The position numbers were made by a program, and so were the translations under genes. This document shows, in pieces, positions 17,701 through 52,487 of a stretch of 64,000 nt of DNA. Under the pieces are notes generated by a model. That model did not search any database and was not told the origin of the DNA. It saw nothing but the letters and a program-made list of their open reading frames with translations. Every line of letters begins with the position of its first letter. Position 1 is the first letter of the stretch. The stretch spans positions 384,001 through 448,000 of the forward strand of contig CM000434.1 of assembly GCA_000165345.1 (NCBI GenBank), in the 5' to 3' direction.

Positions 17701-20700
17701 GAATTTTATCATTGTCCAGGGCATATCCTGCAAATAACTTGGCCAAAGAGATTTTGCTTGAGAAGTTAAATGGTCTGACCTACTAATTAGATTCATAATG
17801 ATAGAGAAAACAAAGTTTCTCCATACAAAAAGATCGTTCCATAATATCATACTGTCCCACTTATTAGGCAATCTATCTCTCCATACATTCAACATTCTGG
17901 CCTCAAAATAACCTGGCGTTGAGTTGCTTGTATTCTGAAGGTTCGAATGTGAGTTAATATTTACATGGGAATTTGGATTCCCTGTATTAATTGATTGTGA
18001 GCTTTGAGCAAGATTATTTGCATTTGAGTGATGAATAATATAGTTTGAACCAAAATTTGCAGTATTCTGAACAATATTACCGTTTAAGGAGTGATTAATA
18101 TTGCTATTTGGACCATCTGGGTAAAGTTTTCTTTCTATATCTGATGAGAGTCTGAAGCCTTCTTGCAGCTCTATATATTGCTGGAAATTTAACAGTAGAG
18201 GAACATGACATGTAGTTACTACGCTTGGTAGCATAGCCCAAAAATTTAGCACAGTTCTATAGCCAATTGAACAGTGGCGTTCAAATTCGGCTAGTTTTGA
18301 TCTCGAACTATTTTGAATTATGCTTTGTGAAAACTGCTGGCAGTAAGCACCATTATTTAAGTTTTGACTATTTGTTGAATTATTTACTCGATTCTGGTTA
18401 CTTATATTAGTACTAGAGTTAGACAGCGATTCTTGAGTTCCCTTACTTTGCAAATTCCAATTGTTATTAATTCCTCCTAATAGCAAGTCATATAAAGAAT
18501 GATATGCTTGACATAACTTTGTAATAGGGTTATGCAGAATATACTTGTTGACTAGTTTCTCCACTAAAACCCAATCTTGTAGTTTTGATGAGCATTCCAA
18601 TTGAAGTTGAGGGTTTCTGCGCTCCTTAGCAAACTCGTTTAGGGTATTCCATTGATTTAGATGCTTTGCGCAAGCAACCCAACTATCTATCCAAATCATT
18701 GTTTCATTATTTAATAGTGATGAATCAGAGTTTTCAAAAATTCTTGCCCAATTTAGAATATTATGGCTACAATCTGCATTACTATTAGTAGCTTTAGAAC
18801 TTGAATTATATATTGCATCAAGGTTATTGTAAAATATTTCCTGTGCTTTACTCCACTCCGCCTGCTGCATTAGCGCTAATCCCATATGGGTTTCGAGACA
18901 ATTGGAAAATGACCTTCTAATGCCAATTACAATGTCTTCTTCTTGTAATTCCCCATAAATTTGTGCCAATATCATCCAAGAACTATCGGGTCCATCATCT
19001 TGAACTAAGTTATTTTTAAAATCATGATTACAATTCACTTTAGAAATAAAGTTATTTTCTTTCTTATTAATGTTTGCTTGGGAGTTACTCGTATTAATCT
19101 GGTTACTTAAATAGTTAGATGCAATATGCCAACATCTTAATTTCGTTGATAAATGCAAAAGCAAAGTTGCCGGTAAAATAGGTGGATTGTCACATGATAG
19201 TAGGGAATCAAGTATAACATGCGGTATTGTCCATTCAGAAGGCATTGCTGAACTCACTCTATGATGTCTTTCTTTAGAAAGCAATTCAATAATATCAAGC
19301 GTTAATTCATTTCTTTGTTGGTGCTCCAAGTTATTCCAAATCCACGGAAAAATAGTTTTCCAAAGAGAGATTGAAATGGATTCGCTTGTACTTGAGAAGA
19401 ACAATAAAGAGTCGATTGCTAAACCTGGATTCCGTTTCAGGTTCCCAATAACATCATCTAATAAATCGAATTTCACTTGCCCAGCTACAAAATTATTATG
19501 CTGTGGTCTGTTAATTAGCGAAGAATTAGATTGATCGCTACTTGAGCTGTCTAGTATGCAAATCAAAGATATATCACTACTAGTGCTCGCATTGTCATCT
19601 TCATAATTCTCTTTTAATTTTAAATTTTGTAGTTCCCACCATTCTAATTCTACTTCTGTTAAGTTAGTCTTAAAATCATTTGTCTTAAATGATTGATAGC
19701 TTTCATTTGAGGATTTATCTAATTTATTAATAATTTGTTGCTCTATTGAGGGAAGAATAGATGGGAATGCTCCCATTTTATTGCTGATGATTGAACTTTT
19801 TTCACTAAAAGTCATTGTAGGCATTAGCAATTCTAGAAATTGAGTTATATAGAATCTCTCTGCAAGCACATCAAAATTTGATGTTGTGAATAAATATCGA
19901 AGCCTACCGAACAAATCTTTTGGCAGCTTTTCATTAAACCATTTTAGAAATCCAAGTTTTATTTTTGGATGAGGCGAAGCCAAACCTAAAAGTGCGCATT
20001 TCTCAAGTTGAGTCAGTGCCTTTTCTGTAAAGACAAAGGTATTAGCTTGTTTAAGAACAATATTGTTAGAAGAGCCTTCGATTTTTGCTTTGAGATTTCC
20101 CTCATAATTTAAAATAATTTTCAGAATTTCATCCTCGTGATTATTTAGAATTTCCTCCAAAAACGAATGGTATATTAGATGCATTTCAAATCTACGATTT
20201 CTATCGCATATTAAAGACCATCCTGTCAAAAGCGTAATCACTAACTCGTATTTCAAAACTTTAATAGAAGTCTCATCAGTTTTGTTTTTGTAATCTAAAT
20301 TCGAATAGAATTTTAATATTTCATCTAAATTATACACTTTAATTCTTCTCTTTCCCTCAAAATCATTCTCGACCGATTCATTCGAATCAACTATCAAAGA
20401 GTTGCAAACAAACAAATTTGAACCTTCTTCTACCTCAATTTCTAGCTTCTCCGATAAATAACTATTGATATTCAACTGATGATTAAATATCCATCGTCCA
20501 AGAATACTCATTAATAGATGAACAATCCCACCTTGAAATGTTATCAATCCAAAATCTCTCAGTAGAACAATAATATGTTGTCTAAAAACATTGCTATTTA
20601 AGCTTTTCATTGTAAAATATGGTGAAATCAAAATTAGTTGAAACAAGTCCGCACAGTTATTTAGTATAGAAGTATTTGATCCATTCAAATGTTGTAGTGC

Positions 20701-23700
20701 ATTAGAGACCGTATGATTTAGATTTTGAGTGTTTGATCTTGAGGTTGAAATATTCGTGTTTTTATTAGCATTTGATATGTTTGATTTTCCGGATAAAGCG
20801 CTCGGCTGTAAGCTGTTTAAATTCTGCGAGTTAGAACTACTATAATAAGCGAGAGCCTTATCCAAAACATATATTATTAATGGAGAAAAGTATCTGAGAA
20901 ACATAACAGCAATTTCTGTTGTTTCTTCTTGAGATTTATGGACATCTTGTTCGTTCAAGGCAATACCCAAGACCATAAACGATGAAATAATTTTGATAGA
21001 AGTATGAAGCGAGATATTTCTTCCAGAACAATTCGTAGTTTGCTCTGAGTATTGTAGAAGATTCGAATTATCATTTGTTGTAGTCTGGTTATTTGATGTA
21101 ACTTTGGCTGGGAATAGTTCTGGTAACACCGATAATTCTTGATTTACTAGGGACCAAATACCAGAAGTTGAAATATCAATTAATCTAATATAGAATGAAT
21201 CTATTTTGTTATCTACTGTTAATTTTTTTGACAGAGGAACCTTGAAGTTGTCAACATAATTATAATCCAATTCTCTAGGCTGGCGATCACTATTTTGAAT
21301 ATTTTCTTCATTAGAATATATAAAATTTACAATTTTTGTTATAGAGTCTTTTAGTTGCGTCGAAGGATGAGGGATTATTTGAATTATCTTACAAATTAAC
21401 ACATATAGAGCTTCAGAGACATTCTTATCATTTGAAACAAAAGCAGGCTCAAGAATTTGTAGAATTGAATCTAATTGCATGATTATTGTGGCAGAGGTTT
21501 GATGGATGCAGAAAACCTGAAGCCCTGCGATAAGTGTCAATTGAAAAGCAATGAGGTTTGGCGAAATAGTTTGATGCTGACTGTTTAGCCCTTGGCTATT
21601 AGTACTCGGATTCTGTGAAATATTGGATCTGGTAGAGCTAGAAATCGATGATAAATGAGAATTATTACTTAAATTAAAACCTATATCCAACCAACTGATT
21701 TGTACTTTGCAATTTGGATAAATTAAAATAATTTTCGATATAGTGCTGAATGATTTTGAAACGATCTTGTGGTCACTACTAGATGCCAATAAAGCAAGCC
21801 TAAACCAAATTGTTATAACTAAATCAATAATTGAGACGGAAGATGTTTCATCTTCAATTTTTAATAATTCTGCAAGTTGCGGAATTGATGAAATATCAAT
21901 AGTTGCATTTGCAACATTTCTATATTCTTTACCAACTCCTGAACATATACTTTGGTTGTTTTTTTCATCTTTACTAATTGAATGGGATATCCTTCTTCTT
22001 TTTAATTCCAAGTTATCATCAGAATCGATACAATGACTCGAAACTCCTATATTCACTTCAGCATCAAAATTACACACCCAATTAGTGATTACAATTAATA
22101 TACCAAAAATCATTCTTTTCATTTCAGGTAGGAAGGGAATATTCAAAATATTATTTGAAGGGAATGCAGATTGACCAAAGTTGTTCGTCATACCAGAGTT
22201 GCTGCCTGCATAGGATGAACTTGTAGATTGAGAGCTATTTTGACCAACTGAACCAAACCCCCATAGTAATTTGGTTAAAGTTGATAAAACTGGAGAAAGA
22301 AGATAAATATATTCAAATGCAAATATATTAGGGCGAAGTGTGATAATATTCCAGTGATACAATTGTTGTTGTAAAGGCAAATTATAACTATCTTGAATTA
22401 GTATTGCAATCATCAACCTAAGCCAGTTAGAAAATAGCGTTTCAGGGGTTTTGTCTTTAATAAATAGTTTAGGAGGTGAAGGTATTAGAGAAAATAAGCT
22501 TTTATCACTTTCATTTTCTGGTGAAAAAATATTTAGTGTATCATCTTTGATGATCGGTTTGATATTGTGCAAAAGTGGAATAAATAAATTCAGAGCTCTT
22601 CGAACAGTAAGTCTAACTTCAGAAACTCCATAAAGCCTTGTAAGAGCTACCAACATTGAAAACAAAATCTTCTCTGGAAAAGGATATTTTTCTACAAAGT
22701 AACACATAGTAATGTAGCCCCAAGACTTGAGCAAAGAAGATTCAGTTCTCAAAATATTCCAAACATCCTTTATAAGTCTTTTTCTGTTATTGGATATTGT
22801 TTCTAGAGAGTATTTATTCTTCACAAGTAAAATAAGAAGTTTAAGTATCTCTATTTTAAGAGGATCATCTGTTGCAGAAAGTCCATTGGTTCCATGTAAT
22901 GGGATTACATTTCTTTCCAAACTTGGAAGTATTATTCTGGTTATTATACCTTCACAAATATAGTCATTTAACCATGAATCTTCACTATGACGAATTTTCT
23001 CATTGTTTCTATTGAATTCGTATTCTAACAGTGGAATCAGTATAAGCTGTATACATGCAATTTGAGTACCAGGTAGAATTGAAGATGTATCTATATTAGG
23101 TCCACTTGGATAATATCTTTGAATGAGTTGGTTAAAAAGTAAACGCTTTTCTTGATTTGAAAGAGTTTTTGGAACTGTACAAATAAGGAAATCGCGAAAA
23201 GCACCACTATCAAGAGTTGAACTTGTACCAAAAAGAGTAGCAATTGTCAAAATAACGTCAATCCTTCTTCTTTTCAAATGTTCTTTTACATCTTGCCCGT
23301 GAATAATTGTCGAGAGCAATGATATAATTAATTCTTTAGATGGGTAAATTGGTTGATTATTTAAGGTAGAGTTTGATGTTGAGCTAATTGAATTGTGAGA
23401 ATTATTTGCGTGCAAAGATGAATTCAAATTGTTATTAGAATTCTGTATATTCTGCCTCATCTGGTGTGAAGTAAACGAAAAGCTATTAGAAAATGTTTGA
23501 TCTTCAGTTAAATTTTGCCTCTGAAAAGATGAGGTAGAAGATTGAGAAAAGTTGGTAATCGATGAGGTATTTGAAGGAAGGCTAACTGCTGAATATAATA
23601 CACTTTTCATTGAATTCTGGACGGATAAAATATCGTTAATAATTTCGTCGCCCACCCTGTTACCATAGCATTTTTTTTCAAGGTATTCCTTATTTTGTAC

Positions 23701-26700
23701 ATTTTCAAGATTGTTTGTTGCAGTATAAAATCCAATAAGCATTTTATATAGCATAAAACACTCATTTGAGTGAAAAAAACTCCAAGGATGTTGCCATGCT
23801 ACAGTACCTTGATATGCTAATGATAGTTCAAATTTATTATCAAAATTTCCATGAGTGGAAATGCCTCCGCTTTTTGTGAATACAACTAGCCTGTTAAAAA
23901 TTGTATTATACATTGTAAGTAGTATATCAATAATTGTTAGGGCAGACCTATTACTAGATGCATAATACTCCAGGAAATCAATTACAAGCAAGCTCGGCCA
24001 CTCTTCGCAAAGACTATTTAAAACTCTTATTCCGTTCCACGCGCTACTATATGATTCAGTAAATGCAGGAGAAACCGGAATAACATTGGGGTTTGCTTTA
24101 TTAATGTTTTGCGGCGCCCCAACAACAGAGTTATTGATATTTTGTTGGACTGAAGATCCAGTGACTTGGGAAAAGTTTGCTGTGGGGATATATGAGTCAC
24201 ACTTATTCTCAACATTCTCTGCTTCTTCTAAAATCCTGTTTACTGTAGACTCAATGAGTTGAGTCCTTAGTTGATAGAGCTTTACTCTAATAACAGAACA
24301 TGGACTCATCTTAATCAAGTCTATAAGAAAATTAGCATATCGATCAGAAGCAAGTTGTTGAATTAGAAACAAGACAACGTTATGCGGAGAATGAGTCGCA
24401 AAAAGTGCCAAAGGAAGGCGAAAGGGTGATGAAATGGTCATTGATGTTGTATAAGATGTTATGAATGATGATATTGAGGACTGCATATTGCTGCTTCTAT
24501 CAAGCCCGGGAAAATTCCTCGTACCCAATATTGTCCCAACCACTTTTGAAACAAATTCGTCAGACCCTTGAGGTAATAAGTGAAAGATGCATACCATTGC
24601 AATTGCCATGTGCAAATCTTCCTCATATCGATTAAAAGTATCGATTTGAGTATTAGCCAGTCCCGTAGAAGAATTTTGAGCTTGCCTTATAGATGAGCTT
24701 GCTTGATTACTGGAATTTAAAACCTCTCTTTGATATTCATTTGGCCAACAAAGTCTTTGTAAGTGTTGCAAAAGCTTTTCACCTAGAGTTACATTAAAGC
24801 AAAAACATAGAAGTTCTAAAAGACGTGCCAATCCCTGAAGAACATGCACCGTTAATTTTGTTGCAGATGCCAGATGTACAAGTACGGGTCTAAGGCAATG
24901 CCTAAGCTGATCTTCAGGCAGAAGTTCGTACTGACTATTGTTTGTATTATTCATAGATGAATTGCAAATATTTGGGTTGCCATTTGAATCCTCAATACCA
25001 TCTATATTTAATAAATATCTCTCCAACCTTACAATAACCTTCAGAGTATGATGCGCAGCCTTGCAAATTTCTAAATCTTTTCTAGTCACGCAGCGGAAAA
25101 GAACTCCAATAATCTTCCATCTGAGCTCGTCTTGAGATGTTTTGGTTTGGTTGATTCCCAATTGACTATTCATTTGAAATTGTTGGTTAATATTTGTTTG
25201 ATGCTGGTTTTGATAAATTTGGTGTGGGTATTGCGTCTTCGATTGATTTACATTTTGTAAGTTTTGGTGGTTGGATTGAGTGCCAACCTGTGCAGGGTGA
25301 TTTACGGAAATATGCTGCGCCAATACTGGAATAGGCTGTTGTGTTTGCTGAAGTTGAACACCTTGATTTACATTTGTTTGGTGAGAATTGTGCTGCAATT
25401 GATTGCTTTGATTGAAATTAGAACTTTGATGTATTTGTGTTGAACAGTTTGAAGGAATTGCTGGAGAAATAACTGGTGAAATATTTGCAGAAACAGGAAC
25501 TGATATTGAGGAGTTGCTTCGGCTTCTGAGGAATTCGGACCAATTTGGATGAAGAAGTATAAGTTTTAAAAACCTGATTGAATAAATTTGAACTTGAACC
25601 TTATTTTTCCTAAAATCTGGGTTGCCTTTATTACCTTGACTATTTTGAGCATTAACTTGGATATTAGATTGAGAAAAGCTATTATTCGAATTTTTTTGTT
25701 GAGATTCATTCATCTCACAGTCTATTTCATCCCTTATTACAACAAAAACATCTTCAACGAACCTTCTGATAATTGTCGACGGAATTCCAATAGGCGATGG
25801 CCTAAGTGATGCTAGAAAACATAAAGTATCTAGGAAGGCAAGCTGATATGGGGTGCTACAGGTAGAGATTAATTTGGTCTGAAGCCTACTTAACAGCTGT
25901 TGTAGTAAGGTCGTTTGCGAAGTAGCATTAAGATTATTTGTATCGTTATTCCCAAACTGACTGCTGAAGCTGGTATTGAGTAAAGTTGCAACAGAAACAC
26001 CTGTAATATTAGATAACGTAATAAGACATTTTTGTGCCATTCTTCTACAGGCAGGTCTCAAAGATAATATATTTGGAGTTATTGAGTTCATACATAAATG
26101 GAATAAATGCTTACGCAAAATATCCAAAATTTCATCTGGAGGAGTATTGTTTGCCAAAGAATTCATAATTTCATCACGTATTGCAACTCCAGAGTACCAC
26201 TTATCCTTTGATTCAGTAATTAGCATTTCCATATAAACACGATAGCTATTACTCCACCAAAATTCAGAGTTATTTTTCTTTAATTCATTAGTTTCATTTA
26301 TCACAGTCAATAGATCCTCCCAATTTCTATCGTTTATATTAATAGACTCGCCAGATAATAAAGATAACTTATTTTTTGGAATAGTTATTCCGTATTTTGA
26401 TATGGGTATTTTAATAACTTTAGAGCTAAAATTTTCACAATTAACAAATAGTGCAAAAGGTTTTATTCCCGTGAAAACAGAGTAAATCAGCGCATCCAAC
26501 GCGTCCTCAGAACATCTTTCTGCAAAAGGATTACTATCCGCTCCAGAGTCTTTTGAAATGAAGAAAAGAGCGTCTGAAAGTTTCTGGAAATATGTCTGGG
26601 CCCAAATAGGTGGAATATGGTTAAGTAGCTCAATAATCAAGATACATGCAGCTGTTTTTTTACTCCATGAGATGTCATAGCACAAATTTACGATATTTGA

Positions 26701-29700
26701 CTCGAGTAGACATGGGAGTTGAGCGGTTTGAAACGCCCTATTAAAGTACAATAATGGAAAGTTTTCTACAAGATTGTAGTAAATATTTACCATGTTCTTT
26801 ACTGCTGCAAGGGCTATGTAGCTTGGCTCTGTATGTTTCAAATGGTTATTGTGAGAAATTGTAAACTGAACGTCGATCGTATCAAATAAAGCAGATAAGA
26901 TCGGAGCAACCGGGTCAGTTTTCGTATTAGACCAATATAGGTTCAAATTACAATGTTCGGGAATAAATGACCTTGATGCGGAATAAATAGCCAAATAATT
27001 TGTCAATCCATCACAAAATTCACCGACAGAGTCATGAAGTTCTTCAATAAGTGATAATGCCAAAATAAGTGATTTAGCAAATAGCTCAAGGTTATTCGAA
27101 TATGATGATTGGGCCTTAAAATTATTGCATTCAGAAATGTAGTCCATTGAAAAGGGAGTTGCCTCATTAGGATTCTCAATTTTCTCGGAATGCTTTTCGA
27201 GATAACTTGTTAGAAAATTGAAAAATGTTTTAATGGATTCCGTAGTTCCAATATCAGTCCAAAAGATCGAAAGATAGAGTAAAAGTAAATTTTTGATGTG
27301 CGTACTGCACATATTCTTAATTATTTTATTTGAGCTTATAAAATCTTTCTTAGAAATAGAAGATAAATATTTATAAACATGCTGCAGTGTATCATCAATT
27401 CTTAGAAACAAAGTTGTGTCTAGTTTATTGTTAATTGGGCTTGGTCTAATTAAAATGGGTACTTTTACACAAAGAGGGTCATTTACATCTAAAACTGCTG
27501 AATCTTTTAAGAACCATCTATTCTTCCCTCCCAATTTTCCTAGAATTCTTCCAACTAGTGTTGCATGCTGAAATGCTATAGATTGCAATGCATAGAAGGA
27601 TAAACTATTGTTCTTTTGATATCTGTGAAAGTTACTTAGCAATACTTGGGAGACAGGTAAAGGAATTGGAGGCGCAGGTTTCAATAGTTTACAAAGTGTT
27701 ACAAGAATTGATGGCCTTGTTTGAAATCTATGGGGCTGATGAAGTGAATTTGTAAGGATCGGATATAAGAAATCATGATGAAGATTATCAATCCAGAGAT
27801 CCAAACTTCTTAATGCCAATAAAACAAGCTCTGGATCATTGCTTTCAAGAGCATTAAGCATTGGACTAATTAATTGCCCCATATAAGGTAATAGTGACTT
27901 GAGCCTTGCCGGAACGGTAAGAGAGATTTCTAGCCAAATTTCACGATAAGGAGACTTAGTTTCTTTCTGCATTTTAATAGTCGTGTCTAGGAACCAGGGA
28001 AGAATAACTAAGAATTCCTTATAAATACCTGATGCTTTACCACCAGGGGTAATGCTTCTGAATAAAGATCTTAAGATTGACAGAAAGAAAATGTTATTTT
28101 GATATTTTGAGGCCATAGATGTACACAACGTGCATAAATCCACAACATATGGAATTAGAATAGTTTCATGTTGAGGATTCTGACCAATATATCTAAAGAG
28201 TTGCTTTAACAGCCTAGTAGATACAAGCCCAGATGCTATCTCATTGGTCTTATCCTTATTGACATTTTTTGAATTTCCCCCATAAATAAAAGTATCAGGT
28301 ATTGGTAAATCAATAATATTTTTCTGCATTTGAAATAATGAAATATTAATATTTTGAGTTAGAATATCAAATGGGAAAGGATGATCATCCGGATTTCCGT
28401 GTGGTGCAGCTGTGGGAGCAAAATTAATTAAATTATTTGGGTCATCTCTTGGATCAATAACGCTTTGAACTGCATCAGGAAATTGTATTGGTGTTCCAAA
28501 ATGGGAAATTCTTCCTCGAGAATATGGTATTTTCGAATGGCTTTCAACGTTGTCTATATGCGGGTCCACTACGTATCTTGAAAGAGCAAGTTTGTGATGT
28601 TCTGTTGGGTAGATTGAGCATGTCAAAGGTGTTGATGGGATATTCATGTTATTAACTTGTGCAATGAATGATGAAATGTCATATTGAGTAGATTCAGAAA
28701 ATAATTGTTTACCATTCAACGATTTCAGTAATATTTGAATAGGAGATAATTTACTACGTAATTCAGTAAATTTTGAGTTTGGCTCAACAGCTAAGGTATC
28801 TAATTTTAACATTAGATGTGGTAAAATCGATTCATAAAATACCTTTGCAGTGTGTTGTTGTACCCCCCAATAATGGAATATTAAAGAAATTTGTGGACTC
28901 ATACTTGTAGACCACTCGAATAATATCGAAAATGTAGCTTGAATTATATCTCCAAAAGATTGCGGGTGAATATAACACAGCACTGAAGCTAAAAGCTCTA
29001 AAAGCTCCTTCTCTTCTGGCATAATTGATAATGGAGAGTTTTGCTGAGGCTTAGCACCATTGTTCTGCCTTACAGCGTTATTGTGTTGATTTGCACCATA
29101 ATTACTCTGGATTGTGTTTGGAATGATTAGGGAGCTTGTTGGAATGATCTGGCATTCATTTCCACCTTCTTTTATTTTAAATAGGCCAGATGAGCTCATT
29201 GTGTACTGAAGACATTGACAGTATTCAACACTGCAGATTATGCCTTCAATTAATATCTTTTGTAGTAATTTACTTTCAGCCTCATTTAACATCACTCCAT
29301 TTGCAAGTTTTCTTACGTCAAAACGAGTAATATCAACATTGTTTGTATTGCTATTATTTGTTGTACCACTCATTCCTGAATGGTTATTATTTAAGATATT
29401 CTTGTTACTAATATCACTGCTTGGAATGGTATTCCTATTCAAAGTTGTAATATGAAAAATTGTTTGACGCGCACCAATTATGGTTGCACGAATAATAGGT
29501 CTAAGCTCTCTCAAAACATCAATGATTAATGGTTTGGTCTGATTTTCCATATCAGTTTCAGAATCAAGTCCTTTTTTCAATGCACTACAACCAGTTATCG
29601 AAATTTCACAATGACCTATCTGTGTATTTGCATAAGAAAACGAGTTATCTAACCAATTACCAATATTCGAAATTTCAATAAATTCATCAAGAAAATCGTT

Positions 29701-31425
29701 TAATACCGGCTTTAATGGTGTGAATGTAAGTGAATCGGTTTTTGAGTCGGGTAATCCTGGTATTTCCTTATTGATAGAGACGAGAACTAGATTATAAATT
29801 TGTCGTCGGAGCTGGTGAATTTTCAATGAAAAAATCGATAAAATATTCAATAAAATATCCCGAATAATAATATTTCTTTGAGTATTACTACTAGGAACAA
29901 AACCTTCTTTTTTTAATATATCTGGTAGAAATGCAGCAGATCTGATACAATAATGTTGCGCAGGTAAAGGAAGAGCTGTATCTAAAATATTTCTTGTGAG
30001 AGAATGTAGGCACTTCATAATTGAATCGAAAAAACTATCCTGATTCAAACTATTGCAGTATGAATTAAGGGAATGCTCAGCTCGCAAATATACAATTATT
30101 TCATGCAATATTGCAGAAGATAACACTTTAAGAGTTTCATAACCAGTACGTCCGTGCCCAATGAGAACTGCTTCATCAAGTAAAATTTCTATCCTATCGT
30201 AAAATCCCTGCCTAAATTCAGTATTCAAAATACTTCTTAGGCAAACCAATATTTCACGGCGCTGGTGAAGACAATATGGTGGGCAAAATAGTAATACCTG
30301 AATAAACCCCTGTATAAATGCTGACTGAGTTTGCCTTAGAGTTTCTGATATATGTTCGTCACCATTAAAACCCCTAAAAAAATGAACAAACCATAATATA
30401 ATTTTGCTACATGCAATCATATAATCCTGTACCAAAGATTTAAATGAAGATGAACGTATTATTTCTGGGATTTGTTCTGGGCTTATTTTTAGTTGACTTA
30501 TAGAATGGTTCTGGGATGCGCAAGATGATCCCATCAACTTTGGGTGGAAATCTCTAGGGAAAAGACTAACAATGTTTAAGCAAGAAACCAAATTAGGAGC
30601 AAAAATGGCGAAGTAACGTTCAATGAAGTGAGGATATAACTGAAAAATGTGCAATAAGGCCAGTGGTAGCTCTATCAGAATTCTTAATGATCGGTGACAT
30701 GGAAGGATCAAATTTTGAGAAGGGTTCGTATTATTTACATTAGTGGTGACGGGACCTCTATGAACATTTGATCTTACTTGATTTGTAATTTCAGTTAACT
30801 CTGGCAGAGTCGTTGAAAGAGCTCCACGAAAGAACAATTGATCAGGATCATCATTTACAGAGTTAATTTTGTCCGATTTAGTTGTTGAATTTCCACTTTG
30901 AATATAAATATCTTGCCCTTCAGTGCTAGAATTATTATTTCTATTTGAAATAACTTCCTGAATAAGTTGTGGCAAAGTGTGTTGTACATCTGTACATAAT
31001 CTTGATGCGAATCCAAGAAAGGATTCAACGACATTTTCTAATTTGTCTGTATAATTCTTGTGTAGAAAAACTAAATTACGAATTGCGAGTACTCCGACAT
31101 CATCGGTATCTCTATCAAGCAAATGTAAGCACAACTGCGCTAAATCTGAACAGTAGTTTGATATAACTTCATTCTGAGGCAACAATGATATAATCTCCAT
31201 ACATATTATACTTGATTTCTTATAATCATGTTTTTTTGCTGTATCATTCATAAGCAGTATGTTTCTGATCCCATCCAAACATTCTTCTAAAAATGAAAAG
31301 TAGGTTTGCTTATCAGTTGTGTATAGCTCAATTTGATCTCTTATATTTGTTAGAAATTCCAATTCCTCATTAAAATCATTTTGGCCAAATGATTTAAGTC
31401 TTGTGCCAACTTCTTTAATATTCAT
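14797..31425 (-). CDS. TRRAP: Tra1/TRRAP-family PIKK pseudokinase (SAGA/NuA4 scaffold), single ~16.6 kb exon, ~5540 aa with large Q/N/S-rich insertions
   Basis: C-terminus ...NLSAMKPTWMPWL matches the TRRAP/Tra1 FATC ending (...DPAWHPWL). The PI3K-like domain (FTTHLGLLSIFSYILGVNDVTPGKLFISLDTGQVYQSE) lacks the DRHxxN and DFG catalytic residues, as in Tra1/TRRAP. Long HEAT/FAT-like helical body. ORF-track start (31446) is TTG; the first ATG is at 31425. Confidence 0.8.
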   Translation of the reverse strand: MNIKEVGTRLKSFGQNDFNEELEFLTNIRDQIELYTTDKQTYFSFLEECLDGIRNILLMNDTAKKHDYKKSSIICMEIISLLPQNEVISNYCSDLAQLCLHLLDRDTDDVGVLAIRNLVFLHKNYTDKLENVVESFLGFASRLCTDVQHTLPQLIQEVISNRNNNSSTEGQDIYIQSGNSTTKSDKINSVNDDPDQLFFRGALSTTLPELTEITNQVRSNVHRGPVTTNVNNTNPSQNLILPCHRSLRILIELPLALLHIFQLYPHFIERYFAIFAPNLVSCLNIVSLFPRDFHPKLMGSSCASQNHSISQLKISPEQIPEIIRSSSFKSLVQDYMIACSKIILWFVHFFRGFNGDEHISETLRQTQSAFIQGFIQVLLFCPPYCLHQRREILVCLRSILNTEFRQGFYDRIEILLDEAVLIGHGRTGYETLKVLSSAILHEIIVYLRAEHSLNSYCNSLNQDSFFDSIMKCLHSLTRNILDTALPLPAQHYCIRSAAFLPDILKKEGFVPSSNTQRNIIIRDILLNILSIFSLKIHQLRRQIYNLVLVSINKEIPGLPDSKTDSLTFTPLKPVLNDFLDEFIEISNIGNWLDNSFSYANTQIGHCEISITGCSALKKGLDSETDMENQTKPLIIDVLRELRPIIRATIIGARQTIFHITTLNRNTIPSSDISNKNILNNNHSGMSGTTNNSNTNNVDITRFDVRKLANGVMLNEAESKLLQKILIEGIICSVEYCQCLQYTMSSSGLFKIKEGGNECQIIPTSSLIIPNTIQSNYGANQHNNAVRQNNGAKPQQNSPLSIMPEEKELLELLASVLCYIHPQSFGDIIQATFSILFEWSTSMSPQISLIFHYWGVQQHTAKVFYESILPHLMLKLDTLAVEPNSKFTELRSKLSPIQILLKSLNGKQLFSESTQYDISSFIAQVNNMNIPSTPLTCSIYPTEHHKLALSRYVVDPHIDNVESHSKIPYSRGRISHFGTPIQFPDAVQSVIDPRDDPNNLINFAPTAAPHGNPDDHPFPFDILTQNINISLFQMQKNIIDLPIPDTFIYGGNSKNVNKDKTNEIASGLVSTRLLKQLFRYIGQNPQHETILIPYVVDLCTLCTSMASKYQNNIFFLSILRSLFRSITPGGKASGIYKEFLVILPWFLDTTIKMQKETKSPYREIWLEISLTVPARLKSLLPYMGQLISPMLNALESNDPELVLLALRSLDLWIDNLHHDFLYPILTNSLHQPHRFQTRPSILVTLCKLLKPAPPIPLPVSQVLLSNFHRYQKNNSLSFYALQSIAFQHATLVGRILGKLGGKNRWFLKDSAVLDVNDPLCVKVPILIRPSPINNKLDTTLFLRIDDTLQHVYKYLSSISKKDFISSNKIIKNMCSTHIKNLLLLYLSIFWTDIGTTESIKTFFNFLTSYLEKHSEKIENPNEATPFSMDYISECNNFKAQSSYSNNLELFAKSLILALSLIEELHDSVGEFCDGLTNYLAIYSASRSFIPEHCNLNLYWSNTKTDPVAPILSALFDTIDVQFTISHNNHLKHTEPSYIALAAVKNMVNIYYNLVENFPLLYFNRAFQTAQLPCLLESNIVNLCYDISWSKKTAACILIIELLNHIPPIWAQTYFQKLSDALFFISKDSGADSNPFAERCSEDALDALIYSVFTGIKPFALFVNCENFSSKVIKIPISKYGITIPKNKLSLLSGESININDRNWEDLLTVINETNELKKNNSEFWWSNSYRVYMEMLITESKDKWYSGVAIRDEIMNSLANNTPPDEILDILRKHLFHLCMNSITPNILSLRPACRRMAQKCLITLSNITGVSVATLLNTSFSSQFGNNDTNNLNATSQTTLLQQLLSRLQTKLISTCSTPYQLAFLDTLCFLASLRPSPIGIPSTIIRRFVEDVFVVIRDEIDCEMNESQQKNSNNSFSQSNIQVNAQNSQGNKGNPDFRKNKVQVQIYSIRFLKLILLHPNWSEFLRSRSNSSISVPVSANISPVISPAIPSNCSTQIHQSSNFNQSNQLQHNSHQTNVNQGVQLQQTQQPIPVLAQHISVNHPAQVGTQSNHQNLQNVNQSKTQYPHQIYQNQHQTNINQQFQMNSQLGINQTKTSQDELRWKIIGVLFRCVTRKDLEICKAAHHTLKVIVRLERYLLNIDGIEDSNGNPNICNSSMNNTNNSQYELLPEDQLRHCLRPVLVHLASATKLTVHVLQGLARLLELLCFCFNVTLGEKLLQHLQRLCWPNEYQREVLNSSNQASSSIRQAQNSSTGLANTQIDTFNRYEEDLHMAIAMVCIFHLLPQGSDEFVSKVVGTILGTRNFPGLDRSSNMQSSISSFITSYTTSMTISSPFRLPLALFATHSPHNVVLFLIQQLASDRYANFLIDLIKMSPCSVIRVKLYQLRTQLIESTVNRILEEAENVENKCDSYIPTANFSQVTGSSVQQNINNSVVGAPQNINKANPNVIPVSPAFTESYSSAWNGIRVLNSLCEEWPSLLVIDFLEYYASSNRSALTIIDILLTMYNTIFNRLVVFTKSGGISTHGNFDNKFELSLAYQGTVAWQHPWSFFHSNECFMLYKMLIGFYTATNNLENVQNKEYLEKKCYGNRVGDEIINDILSVQNSMKSVLYSAVSLPSNTSSITNFSQSSTSSFQRQNLTEDQTFSNSFSFTSHQMRQNIQNSNNNLNSSLHANNSHNSISSTSNSTLNNQPIYPSKELIISLLSTIIHGQDVKEHLKRRRIDVILTIATLFGTSSTLDSGAFRDFLICTVPKTLSNQEKRLLFNQLIQRYYPSGPNIDTSSILPGTQIACIQLILIPLLEYEFNRNNEKIRHSEDSWLNDYICEGIITRIILPSLERNVIPLHGTNGLSATDDPLKIEILKLLILLVKNKYSLETISNNRKRLIKDVWNILRTESSLLKSWGYITMCYFVEKYPFPEKILFSMLVALTRLYGVSEVRLTVRRALNLFIPLLHNIKPIIKDDTLNIFSPENESDKSLFSLIPSPPKLFIKDKTPETLFSNWLRLMIAILIQDSYNLPLQQQLYHWNIITLRPNIFAFEYIYLLSPVLSTLTKLLWGFGSVGQNSSQSTSSSYAGSNSGMTNNFGQSAFPSNNILNIPFLPEMKRMIFGILIVITNWVCNFDAEVNIGVSSHCIDSDDNLELKRRRISHSISKDEKNNQSICSGVGKEYRNVANATIDISSIPQLAELLKIEDETSSVSIIDLVITIWFRLALLASSSDHKIVSKSFSTISKIILIYPNCKVQISWLDIGFNLSNNSHLSSISSSTRSNISQNPSTNSQGLNSQHQTISPNLIAFQLTLIAGLQVFCIHQTSATIIMQLDSILQILEPAFVSNDKNVSEALYVLICKIIQIIPHPSTQLKDSITKIVNFIYSNEENIQNSDRQPRELDYNYVDNFKVPLSKKLTVDNKIDSFYIRLIDISTSGIWSLVNQELSVLPELFPAKVTSNNQTTTNDNSNLLQYSEQTTNCSGRNISLHTSIKIISSFMVLGIALNEQDVHKSQEETTEIAVMFLRYFSPLIIYVLDKALAYYSSSNSQNLNSLQPSALSGKSNISNANKNTNISTSRSNTQNLNHTVSNALQHLNGSNTSILNNCADLFQLILISPYFTMKSLNSNVFRQHIIVLLRDFGLITFQGGIVHLLMSILGRWIFNHQLNINSYLSEKLEIEVEEGSNLFVCNSLIVDSNESVENDFEGKRRIKVYNLDEILKFYSNLDYKNKTDETSIKVLKYELVITLLTGWSLICDRNRRFEMHLIYHSFLEEILNNHEDEILKIILNYEGNLKAKIEGSSNNIVLKQANTFVFTEKALTQLEKCALLGLASPHPKIKLGFLKWFNEKLPKDLFGRLRYLFTTSNFDVLAERFYITQFLELLMPTMTFSEKSSIISNKMGAFPSILPSIEQQIINKLDKSSNESYQSFKTNDFKTNLTEVELEWWELQNLKLKENYEDDNASTSSDISLICILDSSSSDQSNSSLINRPQHNNFVAGQVKFDLLDDVIGNLKRNPGLAIDSLLFFSSTSESISISLWKTIFPWIWNNLEHQQRNELTLDIIELLSKERHHRVSSAMPSEWTIPHVILDSLLSCDNPPILPATLLLHLSTKLRCWHIASNYLSNQINTSNSQANINKKENNFISKVNCNHDFKNNLVQDDGPDSSWMILAQIYGELQEEDIVIGIRRSFSNCLETHMGLALMQQAEWSKAQEIFYNNLDAIYNSSSKATNSNADCSHNILNWARIFENSDSSLLNNETMIWIDSWVACAKHLNQWNTLNEFAKERRNPQLQLECSSKLQDWVLVEKLVNKYILHNPITKLCQAYHSLYDLLLGGINNNWNLQSKGTQESLSNSSTNISNQNRVNNSTNSQNLNNGAYCQQFSQSIIQNSSRSKLAEFERHCSIGYRTVLNFWAMLPSVVTTCHVPLLLNFQQYIELQEGFRLSSDIERKLYPDGPNSNINHSLNGNIVQNTANFGSNYIIHHSNANNLAQSSQSINTGNPNSHVNINSHSNLQNTSNSTPGYFEARMLNVWRDRLPNKWDSMILWNDLFVWRNFVFSIIMNLISRSDHLTSQAKSLWPSYLQDMPWTMIKFASIARKSHRLPEVSVALLQRLQNHLQVSGGDAYRAETFLATLEKVKLCLSDTTQLRTGLNILNMTDFQKCPEPYFDEYRAEFLRLKGIISNKLYPNYYIDGEIPNNANSVTGSNVLNSEQGHPGLNNTSATGISTSVVRVNADLLSSLKVYPLFARGWITWAQYTDRLLYIHQNMSYAVNAVISYLMGIYLRPDKYSILLSRVLWLLPHDSPDGKYLSLAFKKYSDHLPCAVWLPWIPQLIAGIDRIEGSAILHILNKIVLIFPQSIYFNIRSSYLEKREMAHMYWYLSSNSETENTSQGPPPPPSSGIYPSFISLGWQRIESLMNTCRIRHGALTLALEHWVEDIVLHCKPDPLDELLCAIRTLFQMTIEISPINDESIIVQDSNLSDTKASDIFPNIGTHFLEHNIIRRYEQLLNKSSSLNNKSFERSKNIIKQYWNEFKNDFHVYLCNNTNPPIERVSQLKLDYVLEKLKKWKDHFTKCTERYSNENIRGKSLLSDFSTTLCDLFHRINIRLEVPGQYLRIVSESLYLRNFAVLENTNSNNPIGGVIYLHRSLPTVETVVRQSYTLKRIGFITSSGSTIHFLIQPYSGLQQKVEERILHLQVTLNTLLYKYKETRSRNISFAIQPCIPLHPRCRIIEDTGNKKSFTELFEEEANSSNCTCPIKDLDFPILLHRKLINISLRKLNNINNSQLDKEMLKIYTELCDNWVPDNIFKRSILRKFNSHDQSFLFTKQFTTHLGLLSIFSYILGVNDVTPGKLFISLDTGQVYQSELKSSYVSSTLLIDKTEKVPFRLTRNMEHLMGPFGKNGILPGTMLAFAQCLQKYEFHVRNLLCSLLRDDLHAFSVHRALQIPQNRNLYQKPNNPSVESDFDNSSQTVINSPNTANDHSQNTISQIMQQRLLSNVEIREKVDRNVRRMMEKIAVLTNPRPINENSQLIDRSVLELIECSTDPKNLSAMKPTWMPWL

Positions 31426-31803
31426 ATTAACAAAAAGCCATATCAATTGAATAAAAAATAATTAATTTACTTAGATTCAAAAGTATAAAATAATAGAATA
31501 TCAAGTAACTACAAATTTCCTTTAATAATAGTTTTTTATAATTAGCTCTTAGCACAAAAAGAAATACGACATTTATCCTCTCACTAACTTTTATGACAAT
31601 AATTTATCCCGCATAATTAACGCAAGATCTTGGTACTGTATTAACTTGCGTCTACTAAATGTTAACAGAATTATAAGAAACAATTTTCAATTAAAGAATT
31701 TCATTAGTTAAACACTATGAACATTGCAAATTAGGAAGAGAATTAGCTATAAATACTAAACTAATTACATGAATTACGTTAAAAATATAGAATATATGTA
31801 GAC

Positions 31804-44464: not shown

Positions 44465-45302
44465 TTAACTAGTCATTTTAATATCTTCTTCTACTTCATA
44501 TTCGAGGTTAATTTTTTTCTTTTTTGAAAGAATTTCCCTCAACTCATGCTTATGCATCGCTTCAAGTTCATCTTCTGAGTCATCATCTATGCCCTCGATA
44601 TATTCGGCCAACTCATTTTCAAGAGAATCTCCATTACTAACTTCATCTTGAGTAACATTCTCAAGATTATCTAGTGTTTTCTCAAAATTATTAGTTGGAT
44701 AGTTGTATATTCCATCATACAATCCCTCTTTAAGTCTAAGTAATAACTCATTTTCAATTTCATTTTCAATCTTTGCCGCATTAAGTGCCTTATGCTCTCT
44801 TGACGCCTCTCTTCTTTCCGTTTTTTTCTTAATTGGTACAAGCTTGGGTCTTACGGTTAATGCCATCTTTCTTGCACGAATAAGAGTTTGTCTAATTCTA
44901 GTTAACCTATGTTTGCATTTTAGTATTTGATGCTCGGGATAAACATTCTTTAAATTATCATTTATTTGGGAGATTGCAACCAAAAAATTGTTACTAAGTT
45001 TAATTTTTTCCCAAAGATATCTAGGGGTATGAGCTCTCTCAGCAGTTTTCATATATAAATAGCAATCTCCTTCGTGTTCAATAACTGTTGCATATAGTAA
45101 ATTTGATAAGGGGCATGATGTACGATTGCATAGCCCTGTTACATTATATTCGTTTCTGCAAAAAGAGGTTTTGTCGCATCTAATAAATAAAACAAGAAAA
45201 GAGTAAAGTTCATTGATTATTTCGTTGTAATAAAACTTACTTTACTTTAAATGAGCAAAAATTATTGCTAACACTATTCCATATTAACTCAGGGTCGTTC
45301 AT
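44465..45302 (-). CDS. MAK16: MAK16 (60S ribosome biogenesis protein); 2 exons: 45241-45302 and 44465-45179; intron 45180-45240 (61 nt, GTAAGT...TAG)
   Basis: Spliced N-terminus MNDPELIWNSVSNNFCSFKVK|CDKTSFCRNEYNVTGLCNRTSCPLSNLLYATVIEHEGDCYLYMKTAERAHTPRYLWEKIKLS aligns with human MAK16 [84 protein letters not shown]. Acidic C-terminal tail. Confidence 0.85.
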
Positions 45303-46953: not shown

Positions 46954-48672
46954 TTATTTACTATAATATATAGGATTCCACAGGTCAGGCGCAGAAACAA
47001 AATGTTCTTTGTAGAAATTATAATTTTTTTTAGGTATTTTGAACCCATAATTCAAGTAATCATTTATGGACTTGTCAAACTTAAAAAAAGATGAGCTCCT
47101 CCTAATAGAATTTTTTTCATTAATAAATGTTAGATTATTTTTTATGCCGGAATTACGTTGGTTTTTATCAAATTCATCAATAATTTCCTCTTGTATTATC
47201 TCTTCAATTATATCTTCAAGAGTTGCAATCCCAATTATTTCACAGTTTTCTGGCAAGGGTGTATTTGTCTTAGTTGAATATGTGTACTCATCAACATAAT
47301 TTGTGAGAATAGCAACATGGCAACGACCTTGCTGAAACATATTTAGAGCATCATAGGGGTTTGTATCTGGGGCAGTGAAAATTGGTTCTACAATATATCT
47401 ATTACAAGCTTTAGAGTCAAACAATGACTTTATTGTTATTGAGTCGTCTGGGTCAATAGTAATTAATGACTTAACTAAAAGCAATCCTTTAATATCGTGT
47501 CTATTTCCTGAATAAATGGGAATCCTAGAATGCCCTACTCTTAGTATGTCTTCCAAAAGCAAGTGATCTAGCTTTGAGTCGATGTGTAACATATATACTT
47601 TATCTAAAGGGACTGAAAGTTCAAGAAGGCTCTTATTTGCCATATCTAGTACGCCTTGAATAATTGTCACTTCATCATTCGCCAATCCACAATTTTCGAT
47701 TGTTTTAGATCCAAGCGGATTTTTACTTTCTATTCGCTTTTGGGAGCCAATAATAAATCTTTCATTGCTATCCAATAATGTTTGAAAAAATGAAGGGCTT
47801 AAATGCATTTTTTCAAAACTTTGAATTTTTCCTTTAATGTCATTATGCTGATTCTTTCCTGAATCATTTACTTGAACCTCTTCAATATAAATTTTTTTTT
47901 CAACTCGTCCGTCCATAATGTTTGGTACGACTGAAAGTAGAGATATAGGGGCATTATCAAATTCACCAGTTCTTCGATGTAACGCTATTAGTGCTTTGAG
48001 TTGGCCTCTTGCGTAGAAATTATTTGTCTTACCATTCTCCCCAATGAAATAATCCAGAAATTTACTAATTGGCCATGAAAAAACAAATAGACAAATGATG
48101 AGGCATCTAACAAAGGTTGCACAACTCGCTGCTATTCTAAGTTGGTGTTTACCTGTACAAATTGCTTGTGGTAGTATTTCACCAAAAATTAAGATTGCAG
48201 TGACTGAACAAATGACCGCAACCCAGCTTGGGATTATTCTATCAAGAAAAAGTGGAAGCGCTTCCATACAAATAGAGTTAGCAAGTAATAGGGTAACCAA
48301 TAATAGATGGTGCCTTTTTATAAGGTCGAGGGCAATACTTGCCCACCTTTTTTCGTGCTCGTTCCCTGCTTCAATTAATACGCGTAATTGAACGCTATCT
48401 AATGACATTAAACCCGTCGTTAAACCTGATAAAATTCCTCCAAAAAAAATTAGTGCTATGCTAAATAAAATACATAAATAGAATTCGATCGAACCCGTCT
48501 TATATTTGCTTTCACCTGCATCAGATACTAATTCATTGTCTGTTGAATTGCTAATTTGTAAAGCATCACACAAAATACAATGATCAGTTAATCCTAAAAT
48601 TGCCAGATAAATTATTGCAGAAATGAGTTTAGTAGATAAATACTGGCAACTTAATTTGGAACACCTCACCAT
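46954..48672 (-). CDS. CNNM/ACDP-family (DUF21 + CBS pair) putative metal (Mg2+) transporter
   Basis: Multi-TM DUF21 region with GEILPQAICTGKHQLRIAA, followed by CBS-pair-like region. 572 aa. Confidence 0.8.
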   Translation of the reverse strand: MVRCSKLSCQYLSTKLISAIIYLAILGLTDHCILCDALQISNSTDNELVSDAGESKYKTGSIEFYLCILFSIALIFFGGILSGLTTGLMSLDSVQLRVLIEAGNEHEKRWASIALDLIKRHHLLLVTLLLANSICMEALPLFLDRIIPSWVAVICSVTAILIFGEILPQAICTGKHQLRIAASCATFVRCLIICLFVFSWPISKFLDYFIGENGKTNNFYARGQLKALIALHRRTGEFDNAPISLLSVVPNIMDGRVEKKIYIEEVQVNDSGKNQHNDIKGKIQSFEKMHLSPSFFQTLLDSNERFIIGSQKRIESKNPLGSKTIENCGLANDEVTIIQGVLDMANKSLLELSVPLDKVYMLHIDSKLDHLLLEDILRVGHSRIPIYSGNRHDIKGLLLVKSLITIDPDDSITIKSLFDSKACNRYIVEPIFTAPDTNPYDALNMFQQGRCHVAILTNYVDEYTYSTKTNTPLPENCEIIGIATLEDIIEEIIQEEIIDEFDKNQRNSGIKNNLTFINEKNSIRRSSSFFKFDKSINDYLNYGFKIPKKNYNFYKEHFVSAPDLWNPIYYSK

Positions 48673-48810
48673 CCAAATGAGATGAAAATAATACTTTGAA
48701 AGTTTTAAATTTTAATCTTTTATTCTACTTATTTTAGTCTGTAAAATTTTTCCTCGATTTAATATAATTTATTCCAGTTATTTTCATGACAATTATTTTA
48801 TAAAACATTC

Positions 48811-48820
48811 AAGGCGCCTT
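48811..48820. promoter_or_regulatory. Palindromic AAGGCGCCTT (E2F-like GGCGCC core) ~45 bp upstream of the APC10 ATG
   Basis: Seen directly in the divergent CNNM/APC10 intergenic region. Confidence 0.3.
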
Positions 48821-48862
48821 AATGTTCAGATTTTTAAAAGATTTTTTCAACTATAAAATCAA

Positions 48863-49738
48863 TGGACCTTACACTATTAGAGTCAAGTATTGGAATGCCA
48901 AGTCTCCCAAATCAAACTTGTGATGATTTTATGTCCAGCTTAATTGAAATAGGAGACTTGGCATCCTGGTCCCTTTCTTCTGCTAAAGTATGTTTTTACT
49001 TGCACTTGAAAAAATAAAATACATTTCAGCCAGGAAATGGAATACAACAGTTGAGAGATAATAACTCAAGCACATTTTGGCAAAGCGATGGCCAAAGCCC
49101 ACACACAATCACGCTGAGATTTCCTAAAAAAACAAAAGTTTCGGTAATTGATCTATACCTTGCATACAAAATAGATGAAAGTTATACTCCCCAAATTATT
49201 TCTATTAGGTCTGGAAATCAAGAAAGCGATTTGGAGGAGTTGAAAGAAATGCAACTTACTGAACCAGATGGATGGGTAAGAATTCCTCTCTCCCCAAGGG
49301 AAATCGCGGATAATTTTTTTAAAGATGCAATGTAAGTAAATAATAGGTAATTCAAACAATTAATTGTTATTTTTAAGGCCTATACAAATCAAGACAATGT
49401 GCGATTCTCAAAATTATATTTCTGCATTCTGCATTCAGGTAAGAAACATCTTAGAAAATATGAACATACTTATTTATTTTAGATAGCAATACTTGCAAAT
49501 CATCAAACTGGAAGAGATACACATGTCAGGTATGTAAAGTGTGTTTATTTGAATTATTTAATATGCCTTGTTAGACAAATAAGAGTTTGGGGGCCAAGAG
49601 AAGTGAATGACAACGTTGTAGGAAAGTAAGTTAAAAATATAACTTAAAAGATTGACTAAACCTTTCAGAGTCCCAATTTCACAACCAATAAAAATGGGCA
49701 CGACGATTGATACAAGAATGTATCAGATTTTAAGATAA
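48863..49738 (+). CDS. ANAPC10: Anaphase-promoting complex subunit 10 (APC10/DOC1); 6 exons: 48863-48988, 49030-49331, 49378-49438, 49483-49529, 49575-49625, 49669-49738; introns 41-46 nt
   Basis: Spliced product ...IEIGDLASWSLSSAK|PGNGIQQLRDNNSSTFWQSDGQSPHTITLRFPKKTKVSVIDLYLAYKIDESYTPQIISIRSGN...DGWVRIPL...FCIQ|IAILANHQTGRDTHVR|QIRVWGP...VVGK|VPISQPIKMGTTIDTRMYQILR aligns along human APC10 ([35 protein letters not shown]...SDESYTPSKISVRVGN...[25 protein letters not shown]...GKFPRCTTIDFMMYRSIR). All junctions are GTAAGT/GTATGT...YAG. Confidence 0.8.
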
Positions 49739-49924: not shown

Positions 49925-50269
49925 ATGTTGAAAATATTAGGCTTTTTGATGGCATGCTTCCAGCAAAGCAATAACCAGTATTACAAAGATGATAAATTCA
50001 AAGATTGTAGCGATTCAAATTCGCTTGTGAAGTATACATCAATTGGAATAAAAATAATAGTATATTCAATTTCATGGATAATGGTGTTAATATGGGATGC
50101 TTATGAATATGGGATGGTTTTTTATGGGCTAATATTGAGTATTTATATCTTGAAATATTACTCAAAATACTCATGTTTAAGATGTGTATTTGAAGAGATT
50201 TTTAAAAAACAAATACTGAAACATATATTCCCAAAAAGTTTAAACAAAATAGTAGAATGGCAATCTTAA
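49925..50269 (+). CDS. Possible small two-TM protein (114 aa), uncertain
   Basis: ORF with two hydrophobic segments, ending 39 bp before the SRP19 ATG. No homolog recognised. Could be a chance ORF in AT-rich DNA. Confidence 0.25.
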   Translation: MLKILGFLMACFQQSNNQYYKDDKFKDCSDSNSLVKYTSIGIKIIVYSISWIMVLIWDAYEYGMVFYGLILSIYILKYYSKYSCLRCVFEEIFKKQILKHIFPKSLNKIVEWQS

Positions 50270-52089: not shown

Positions 52090-52487
52090 ATGGATTCTAA
52101 AGGAAAAAAAAACCTACGCTCAAGTAATGGCGACCGTAAGAAAAATGCGGTCGCAAGAGCTACTGGAGAAATGAATAAAATATTTGAAACTATACTCAAT
52201 AAGAAAGCAACTCTCAAAGCTAATTCAAGAGCGCAAAAAGAGAAGAATAAACTGGCAAAACGAACAAAAAAAGACAGTGTAATTAGAGATAATACAAATA
52301 AGAGCTTGGATATTAATTATGGCTATATTAAACCTATAAGATATCTTAATGATGGGCTACCAGTTTATAGATTGGAAGATATTAATCTAGGTAAGTAAAA
52401 CCGCATAATAGCCCGGACGATTAATTCTCAATAGGTGATGGAGGAGGCACGCCTGACTGTCCATTTGATTGCAACTGCTGTTTCTAA
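52090..52487 (+). CDS. Small Lys-rich basic protein with a putative spliced Cys-rich C-terminus (...EDINLG|DGGGTPDCPFDCNCCF); exon 1 52090-52390, intron 52391-52434 (44 nt), exon 2 52435-52487
   Basis: ORF 52090-52398 ends in GGTAAGTAA, where GTAAGT is a canonical donor. A 44-nt intron ending CAATAG fits the window's intron length class and extends the protein by 17 aa with four Cys. The unspliced reading ends ...LGK instead. No family recognised. Confidence 0.4.

Follow-up and report, generated by a model that had tools for sequence, protein, structure and literature searches.

A six-exon gene for the APC10/DOC1 subunit of the anaphase-promoting complex in Cryptosporidium parvum and the conflicting public models of its structure

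The closest described relatives of the protein considered here are human ANAPC10 (PDB 1jhj; chain L of 4ui9, 5khu, 9gaw, and others) and Saccharomyces cerevisiae Doc1 (PDB 1gqp and chain A of 8a3t), with APC10/DOC1 being the DOC-domain subunit of the anaphase-promoting complex/cyclosome (APC/C). In the solved structures of the APC/C, the hydrophobic-Arg tail of APC10 must be a free C-terminus. The apicomplexan APC/C is reduced and poorly studied, and the phylogenomic survey of 2011 reported the partner subunits Apc1, Apc3, Apc6, Apc8, and Apc11 in C. hominis, with Apc10 being unlisted (PMC3195147). The absence of Apc10 from that list is probably, and plausibly, due to a fragmented gene model, and arguments for a “reduced” apicomplexan APC/C should reckon with this omission; a clear orthologue of conserved structure is present across the genus. 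As for the genes of the parasite in general, introns are found in about 10.8% of the C. parvum genes, the intron-bearing ones having 2-10 exons (mean 2.6) and introns with a mean length of 99 bp and a GC content of 22% (PMC4637869), while an earlier survey gave a median intron of 61 nt and a GTAAGT start in 84% (PMC2483917).

The locus described in this report lies in a 64-kb stretch of genomic DNA (hereafter the window; 30.7% GC as a whole), and, with a probability of about 95%, it is the chromosomal gene of Cryptosporidium parvum for APC10/DOC1, from which five canonical GT-AG introns are removed to give a 218-aa product. The 6877 nt around the gene align with C. parvum CP141123.1:427255-434131 with 0 mismatches, and APC10 as called on CP141123.1 covers the identical 877-nt span, window positions 48862-49738 corresponding to 430255-431131 there. 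Joining the six exons, which was done by hand splicing and with an exact protein-to-genome mapper, yields a CDS of 657 nt without an internal stop, encoding 218 aa followed by TAA and ending in ...TTIDTRMYQILR-TAA. This bears out the central claim of the first-pass annotation, made from the DNA letters, that an APC10 gene is split here into six exons by five short introns; the joined frame is identical to QOY41065.1 (CPATCC_002707, C. parvum IOWA-ATCC) and to WRK32784.1, “Anaphase-promoting complex, subunit 10 (APC10)”, both of which were retrieved from GenBank by an exact-sequence look-up. The six-exon model is correct but already public, nothing in it differs from the deposited gene, and, with gene, protein, and precise exon layout all available from public databases beforehand, it carries little weight as a discovery.

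The gene is not apparent from any one reading frame. Conserved APC10-like peptides shift between the three forward frames, and the gaps between them are AT-rich (17-24% GC) and have the form GTA...AG. The only entry of the ORF track over the DOC core is a 94-aa frame with a TTG start, as had been stated before, which was found at 49051-49335 (+), and on the minus strand of the APC10 region there is no ORF of more than 68 aa. The exons measure 126, 302, 61, 47, 51, and 70 nt and the introns 42, 46, 44, 45, and 43 nt, so that the earlier range of 47-70 nt for the last three exons is exact, while that of 41-46 nt given for the introns is right in its upper bound, the shortest being 42 nt and not 41. 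The 5′ splice sites resemble the consensus of spliceosomal introns of the U2 type and read GTAAGT (two introns), GTATGT (two), and GTAAGA (one).

All of the exons and introns lie on the plus strand. Exon 1 (48862-48987; 126 nt, codons 1-42; MDLTLLESS...SWSLSSAK) begins with the ATG at 48862, not at 48863 where the gene had initially been made to start, and its N-terminus (MDLTL/MSLTL/MNLTL) is kept in 6 of 7 Cryptosporidium species. Intron 1 (48988-49029; 42 nt, phase 0, GTATGT...TTTCAG), which would introduce an in-frame TAA if retained, is found at the same position and in the same phase in seven species with a length of 42-63 nt, and the human APC10 alignment is unbroken over the K42|P43 junction of exons 1 and 2 (SCK-PG). 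Exon 2 (49030-49331; 302 nt) provides the DOC-domain core, including the 94-aa TTG ORF, and is followed by intron 2 (49332-49377; 46 nt, phase 2 with an AT|G codon split, GTAAGT...TTTAAG), read-through of which meets a TAA at once, directly after codon 142, which is the reason why the truncated 132-aa RefSeq model ends there. Exon 3 (49378-49438; 61 nt), encoding PIQIKTMCDSQNYISAFCIQ, comprises a lineage-specific loop and the start of a conserved beta-strand; intron 3 (49439-49482; 44 nt, phase 0, GTAAGA...TTTTAG) shifts the frame if retained. Exon 4 (49483-49529; 47 nt), with the peptide IAILANHQTGRDTHV(R), aligns with its counterpart in human APC10, and is separated by intron 4 (49530-49574; 45 nt, phase 2, GTATGT...TGTTAG), which in C. 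parvum contains no stop and would keep the frame, from exon 5 (49575-49625; 51 nt), (R)QIRVWGPREVNDNVVG(K), whose human counterpart is RQIKIYTPV..SIGK. Intron 5 (49626-49668; 43 nt, phase 2, GTAAGT...TTTCAG) precedes exon 6 (49669-49738; 70 nt), which encodes (K)VPISQPIKMGTTIDTRMYQILR with the C-terminal L-R tail and the TAA stop. A continuous human APC10 alignment spans junctions 1, 3, 4, and 5, and junction 2, the only one to lie in the lineage-specific loop, is backed by the seven-species comparison described below and by there being zero alternative in-frame pairs of splice sites for it. The two C-terminal peptide blocks which the first-pass annotation had quoted as reproduced by the joined exons turned out to be those of human APC10 and are not encoded here; the window has IAILANHQTGRDTHVRQIRVW (15/21 identical) and the terminal block of the CDS given above (7/12 identical) in their place.

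Splicing was assessed comparatively, for which the C. parvum locus was set beside its orthologues in six further species (C. meleagridis, C. canis, C. felis, C. bovis, C. ryanae, and C. muris), with each orthologous protein being mapped exactly onto its own DNA. The seven loci are all syntenic (CNNM, APC10, small ORF, SRP19, BCCIP), and the five introns are present in 7/7 species with identical codon and phase (0, 2, 0, 2, 2); all 35 of the 35 introns start with GT and end with AG. Exons 2-6 have lengths of 302, 61, 47, 51, and 70 nt in every one of the seven species, with the introns varying between 42 and 79 nt, and for the five species that are further removed from C. parvum than C. meleagridis is, the identity to C. 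parvum amounts to 0.67-0.89 for exons and 0.21-0.60 for introns. Differences at codon positions 1/2/3 number 46/15/247 in exon 2, 12/4/58 in exon 3, 9/0/32 in exon 4, 18/14/41 in exon 5, and 24/9/63 in exon 6, which means that every small exon has a strong third-position excess in the frame predicted by the model. It has to be kept in mind that some of the orthologous gene models may be homology transfers from C. parvum, but the constancy of the exon lengths, the GT-AG boundaries, and the pattern of substitutions can be read from the DNA itself and do not depend on the annotation. The reannotation of C. parvum IOWA-ATCC, which includes the 218-aa model, describes its introns in a blanket statement as 100% supported by RNA-seq (PMC8744675), and neither anaphase nor APC10 is mentioned in the supplement of PMC4637869. 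The comparative and homology evidence, together with the blanket statement of PMC8744675, supports the predicted splicing of APC10.

The choice of splice sites was further evaluated by enumerating the GT donors and AG acceptors within 45 nt of each APC10 junction and keeping those combinations that gave in-frame stop-free products, of which there were 3, 0, 1, 7, and 1 for introns 1-5, respectively. These were scored with an APC10 HMM built from non-Cryptosporidium homologues only, by which the 218-aa model was the best of all alternatives at 249.2 bits (127.8 for the 94-aa ORF alone), closely followed by a 25-nt alternative for intron 5 (248.4 bits) and an alternative for intron 4 (246.9 bits). 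Since these margins are small, the HMM alone cannot fix the junctions of introns 4 and 5, which are fixed by the invariance of exon lengths across species. Several alternative sites for these two introns lie within 1-5 bits, and they were ruled out by the seven-species comparison.

The public models for APC10 are in conflict with each other, having lengths of 132, 205, 211, 233, 285 (C. felis), and 313 aa, and three different readings of the locus are represented among them. In one of these, intron 4 (49530-49574) is kept and the main product has 233 aa with a 15-residue insert (YVKCVYLNYLICLV-type). It is used by three deposits (KAL5368058.1, WKS78294.1, and C. hominis KAL3127532.1), and such models are explained by the 45 nt of intron 4 keeping the frame and containing no stop in C. 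parvum, as well as in C. hominis and C. meleagridis. By our estimate, however, a stop-free stretch of 15 codons would arise by chance in about 1 of 4 cases at the local base composition, and the segment has consensus splice boundaries (GTATGT...TAG). The insert also breaks the GRDTH-x-RQ block, in which none of the residues G173, R174, D175, H177, and R179 varies among 67 homologues, and the independent APC10 HMM gives the 233-aa form 239.1 bits vs 249.2 for the 218-aa one. In C. canis, C. felis, C. bovis, C. ryanae, and C. muris, where the orthologous introns have 52, 49, 60, 57, and 61 nt, retention leads to a stop and/or a frameshift, so that, judged from these loci, it would be possible only in the parvum/hominis/meleagridis clade, and we regard a main product of 233 aa as very unlikely.

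The 132-aa form (XP_001388316.1/EAZ51510.1), in which exons 1-2 alone are coding and the later “exons” belong to the 3′ UTR, is the reference model of C. parvum Iowa II and was copied in C. hominis CUV06610.1; what speaks for it is the TAA after codon 142 that is met on reading through intron 2. It is contradicted by exons 3-6 being invariant in length and showing a third-position-biased substitution over seven species, and by what they encode, namely the NHQ-GRDTH motif, which is strongly conserved, and the hydrophobic-Arg end of the protein; the 132-aa product would also be without the last beta-strands of the DOC sandwich, and the Pfam score (PF03256), which is 115 bits if the 94-aa ORF is taken alone, reaches 204 bits with all six exons. 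The four downstream exons that the 132-aa model ignores are under clear purifying selection, and a gene ending with exon 2, which already fails on conservation, is hardly credible. An equally improbable structure is the one in which a further intron fuses APC10 to the 114-aa ORF downstream (49925-50269, +; no Pfam match) into a product of about 285-313 aa, as in the models deposited for C. felis (P0003), C. ubiquitum (OII73079.1), and C. hominis (OLQ17591.1). The two frames do lie on the same strand, 186 nt apart, and RNA-seq reads often span neighbouring genes in the compact Cryptosporidium genome, but the same study terms such read-through fusions false (PMC8744675). The stop (TAA or TAG) stands directly after ...LR in 7/7 species, the downstream ORF is annotated separately, with 110-114 aa, in several Cryptosporidium species, and the fusion would bury a tail that is conserved in the family: Arg is the last residue in 114 of the 120 homologues listed, and in 113 of them it follows I, V, or L. 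For the models of 132, 233, 285, and 313 aa (those of 205 and 211 aa being outside this comparison), the comparative evidence from the DNA of the seven loci clearly favours the predicted six-exon form of 218 aa, and these four rivals look like annotation errors. The present analysis has some practical value for curation, the RefSeq entry of Iowa II (XP_001388316.1, 132 aa) being truncated and APC10 having at least five further conflicting models among C. parvum, C. hominis, and their relatives.

With the 218-aa six-exon gene as the preferred structure, its intron content can be set against that of its surroundings. In the annotated 21 kb around APC10, introns occur in 3 of 14 complete genes, and APC10 has 5 of the 7 implied introns; in the annotation of CP141123.1, a Mak16/L28e-domain gene (44465-45302, -) has 838 nt for 258 aa, implying an intron of 61 nt, and a DUF1764 gene (52090-52487, +) has 398 nt for 117 aa, implying one of 44 nt. 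The intron packing had been called dense at the outset, which is fair, but the excess is modest: six exons are unusual for the C. parvum genome, being in the upper tail yet inside the published range of 2-10 exons (PMC4637869), and intron lengths of 42-46 nt are normal, if rather short. The contrast that had been drawn with a neighbouring 16-kb TRRAP gene without introns holds only in part. The Tra1/TRRAP ORF (14797-31446, -; 5549 codons, 16.6 kb, the mechanical ORF starting with TTG) is indeed a single uninterrupted frame which carries Tra1_central, Tra1_ring, FAT, PI3_PI4_kinase, and FATC and is intronless over this whole domain set, but it is about 17 kb away with some 11 genes in between, and hence no immediate neighbour.

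The introns of APC10 fall at positions 126, 428, 489, 536, and 587 of the 657-nt CDS, i.e., 4/5 of them are in its last 35%. Intron-poor genomes typically have a 5′ bias, of which this crowding is the reverse. In Coccomyxa, a green alga, APC10 is interrupted three times, behind codons 2, 56, and 114, and none of these introns clearly matches a Cryptosporidium position; the Chromera APC10 entry is a transcript and as such carries no intron information, and orthologues from Toxoplasma and Plasmodium were not among the 120 matches listed. It is an improbable, if not quite negligible, idea that the fixed-position introns of APC10 are no passive leftovers, having been gained in this lineage or kept because splicing regulates the dosage of APC10. 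Such dosage control might involve intron 4, which could be retained in frame in the parvum/hominis clade and would then interrupt the GRDTH-RQ motif of the DOC domain.

Upstream of APC10 lies the divergent CNNM gene (46954-48672, -), and the intergenic region between the two (48673-48861), which has 189 nt and a GC content of 21%, is presumed to be their common promoter. A GGCGCC palindrome is found in it at 48813-48818, 44 nt before the APC10 ATG, and the block around it, ATTCAAGGCGCCTTA, is unchanged in C. meleagridis and C. canis; C. felis, C. bovis, C. ryanae, and C. muris have GCGC-core variants in the last 120 nt upstream of the ATG, and in most species a TTTT(A)CATG block precedes the GCGC-core element. 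We take the palindrome to resemble the E2F-like motif reported for Cryptosporidium promoters. Enrichment of GGCGCC in the window is not significant, with 3 occurrences vs 0.83 expected and 6 of 100 shuffles matching that number. Further downstream, a gene for a cysteine-protease inhibitor of the chagasin family (55165-55701, -; 178 aa, Pfam Inhibitor_I42) has a kinesin motor gene on either side, the two lying on opposite strands (52868-55012, +; 55761-58538, -). Rfam and tRNA scans of the whole 64-kb window gave no Rfam family at the gathering threshold and no tRNA genes.

The assignment of the product to its family rests on several lines of evidence. The full-length domain match that the first-pass annotation had anticipated for the spliced protein was obtained: Pfam ANAPC10 (PF03256) is hit with E=1.8e-60 and 204.2 bits (cut-off 21) over profile positions 18-171 of 185. 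A protein search with the 218 aa retrieves Cryptosporidium APC10 entries with an identity of 77-100%, and the named database matches carry the APC10 annotation. In an HMMER search of PDB sequences, the human APC10 chains are the best (E=4.7e-46; query 26-217 vs human 21-184 of 185), ahead of yeast Doc1 (E about 1e-22, 6e-22) and HECTD3 (E=6.5e-4). An AlphaFold2 model from a 67-sequence alignment has a mean pLDDT of 77.8, exceeding 90 at approximately residues 30-130 and 160-170 and falling to near 68 in the loop 131-150, and Foldseek finds APC10 in the human APC/C and 1jhj as its best matches (E about 1e-19); the superposition on 1jhj (E=8.5e-19, TM to target 0.85, rmsd 2.4 Å over 165 columns) has the beta-sandwich (jelly-roll) of the DOC fold. 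In 67 APC10 sequences including that of C. parvum, 26 columns are invariant, among them W59-G63, D91-P96, H170, G173-D175, H177, and R179, and the surface motifs WQSDG, DESYTP, and H-x2-GRD-x-H-x-R are kept in C. parvum. These results support the spliced product being a full-length APC10/DOC1.

The protein ends in ...YQILR, i.e., with L-R in place of the canonical I-R, and LR is found in all seven Cryptosporidium species. Among the 120 homologues listed, the terminal dipeptide is IR in 66, VR in 36, and LR in 11, 7 of these 11 being the Cryptosporidium entries themselves; given this mix of IR, VR, and LR, the L-R tail can be read as a conservative variant of the family hallmark.

From its membership in this family, we infer that C. 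parvum APC10 has the role in the APC/C that is described for its relatives. Transcription of the gene would start at the short divergent promoter that it has in common with the CNNM gene and run from left to right, and the spliceosome would excise the five GT-AG introns of 42-46 nt, leaving a 657-nt coding mRNA for the 218-aa protein. By homology, APC10 would adjoin the module of the APC2 cullin and the APC11 RING subunit, with its C-terminal hydrophobic-Arg tail, here Leu-Arg, presumably docking in the TPR groove of APC3. With Cdc20/Cdh1 as the co-activator, APC10 would, in analogy to the known complexes, form a bipartite receptor for the destruction-box degron, leading to processive ubiquitination of the substrate.

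Compared with these known systems, C. parvum APC10 is closest to the human protein, with which it has in common the DOC beta-sandwich, at a Foldseek identity of about 40-44%, the WQSDG, DESYTP, and NHQ-GRDTH motifs, and a C-terminal hydrophobic-Arg tail. It differs from human APC10 in a 20-residue insertion after the LSP/LT strand (human gap within query residues 129-157), which has a lower model confidence and two short predicted helices, in about 20 extra N-terminal residues, which are disordered, and in the tail being L-R instead of I-R. S. cerevisiae Doc1 belongs to the same family and has the same fold (Foldseek E about 1e-15), but it is only 27-29% identical to the C. parvum protein and has a long N-terminal extension. 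HECTD3, HERC2, and CUL7/CUL9 also have the DOC/galactose-binding-like fold, but their similarity is far weaker (Foldseek about 1e-9), and they are multidomain E3 ligases, whereas the C. parvum protein is a stand-alone DOC domain with a tail of the APC10 type.
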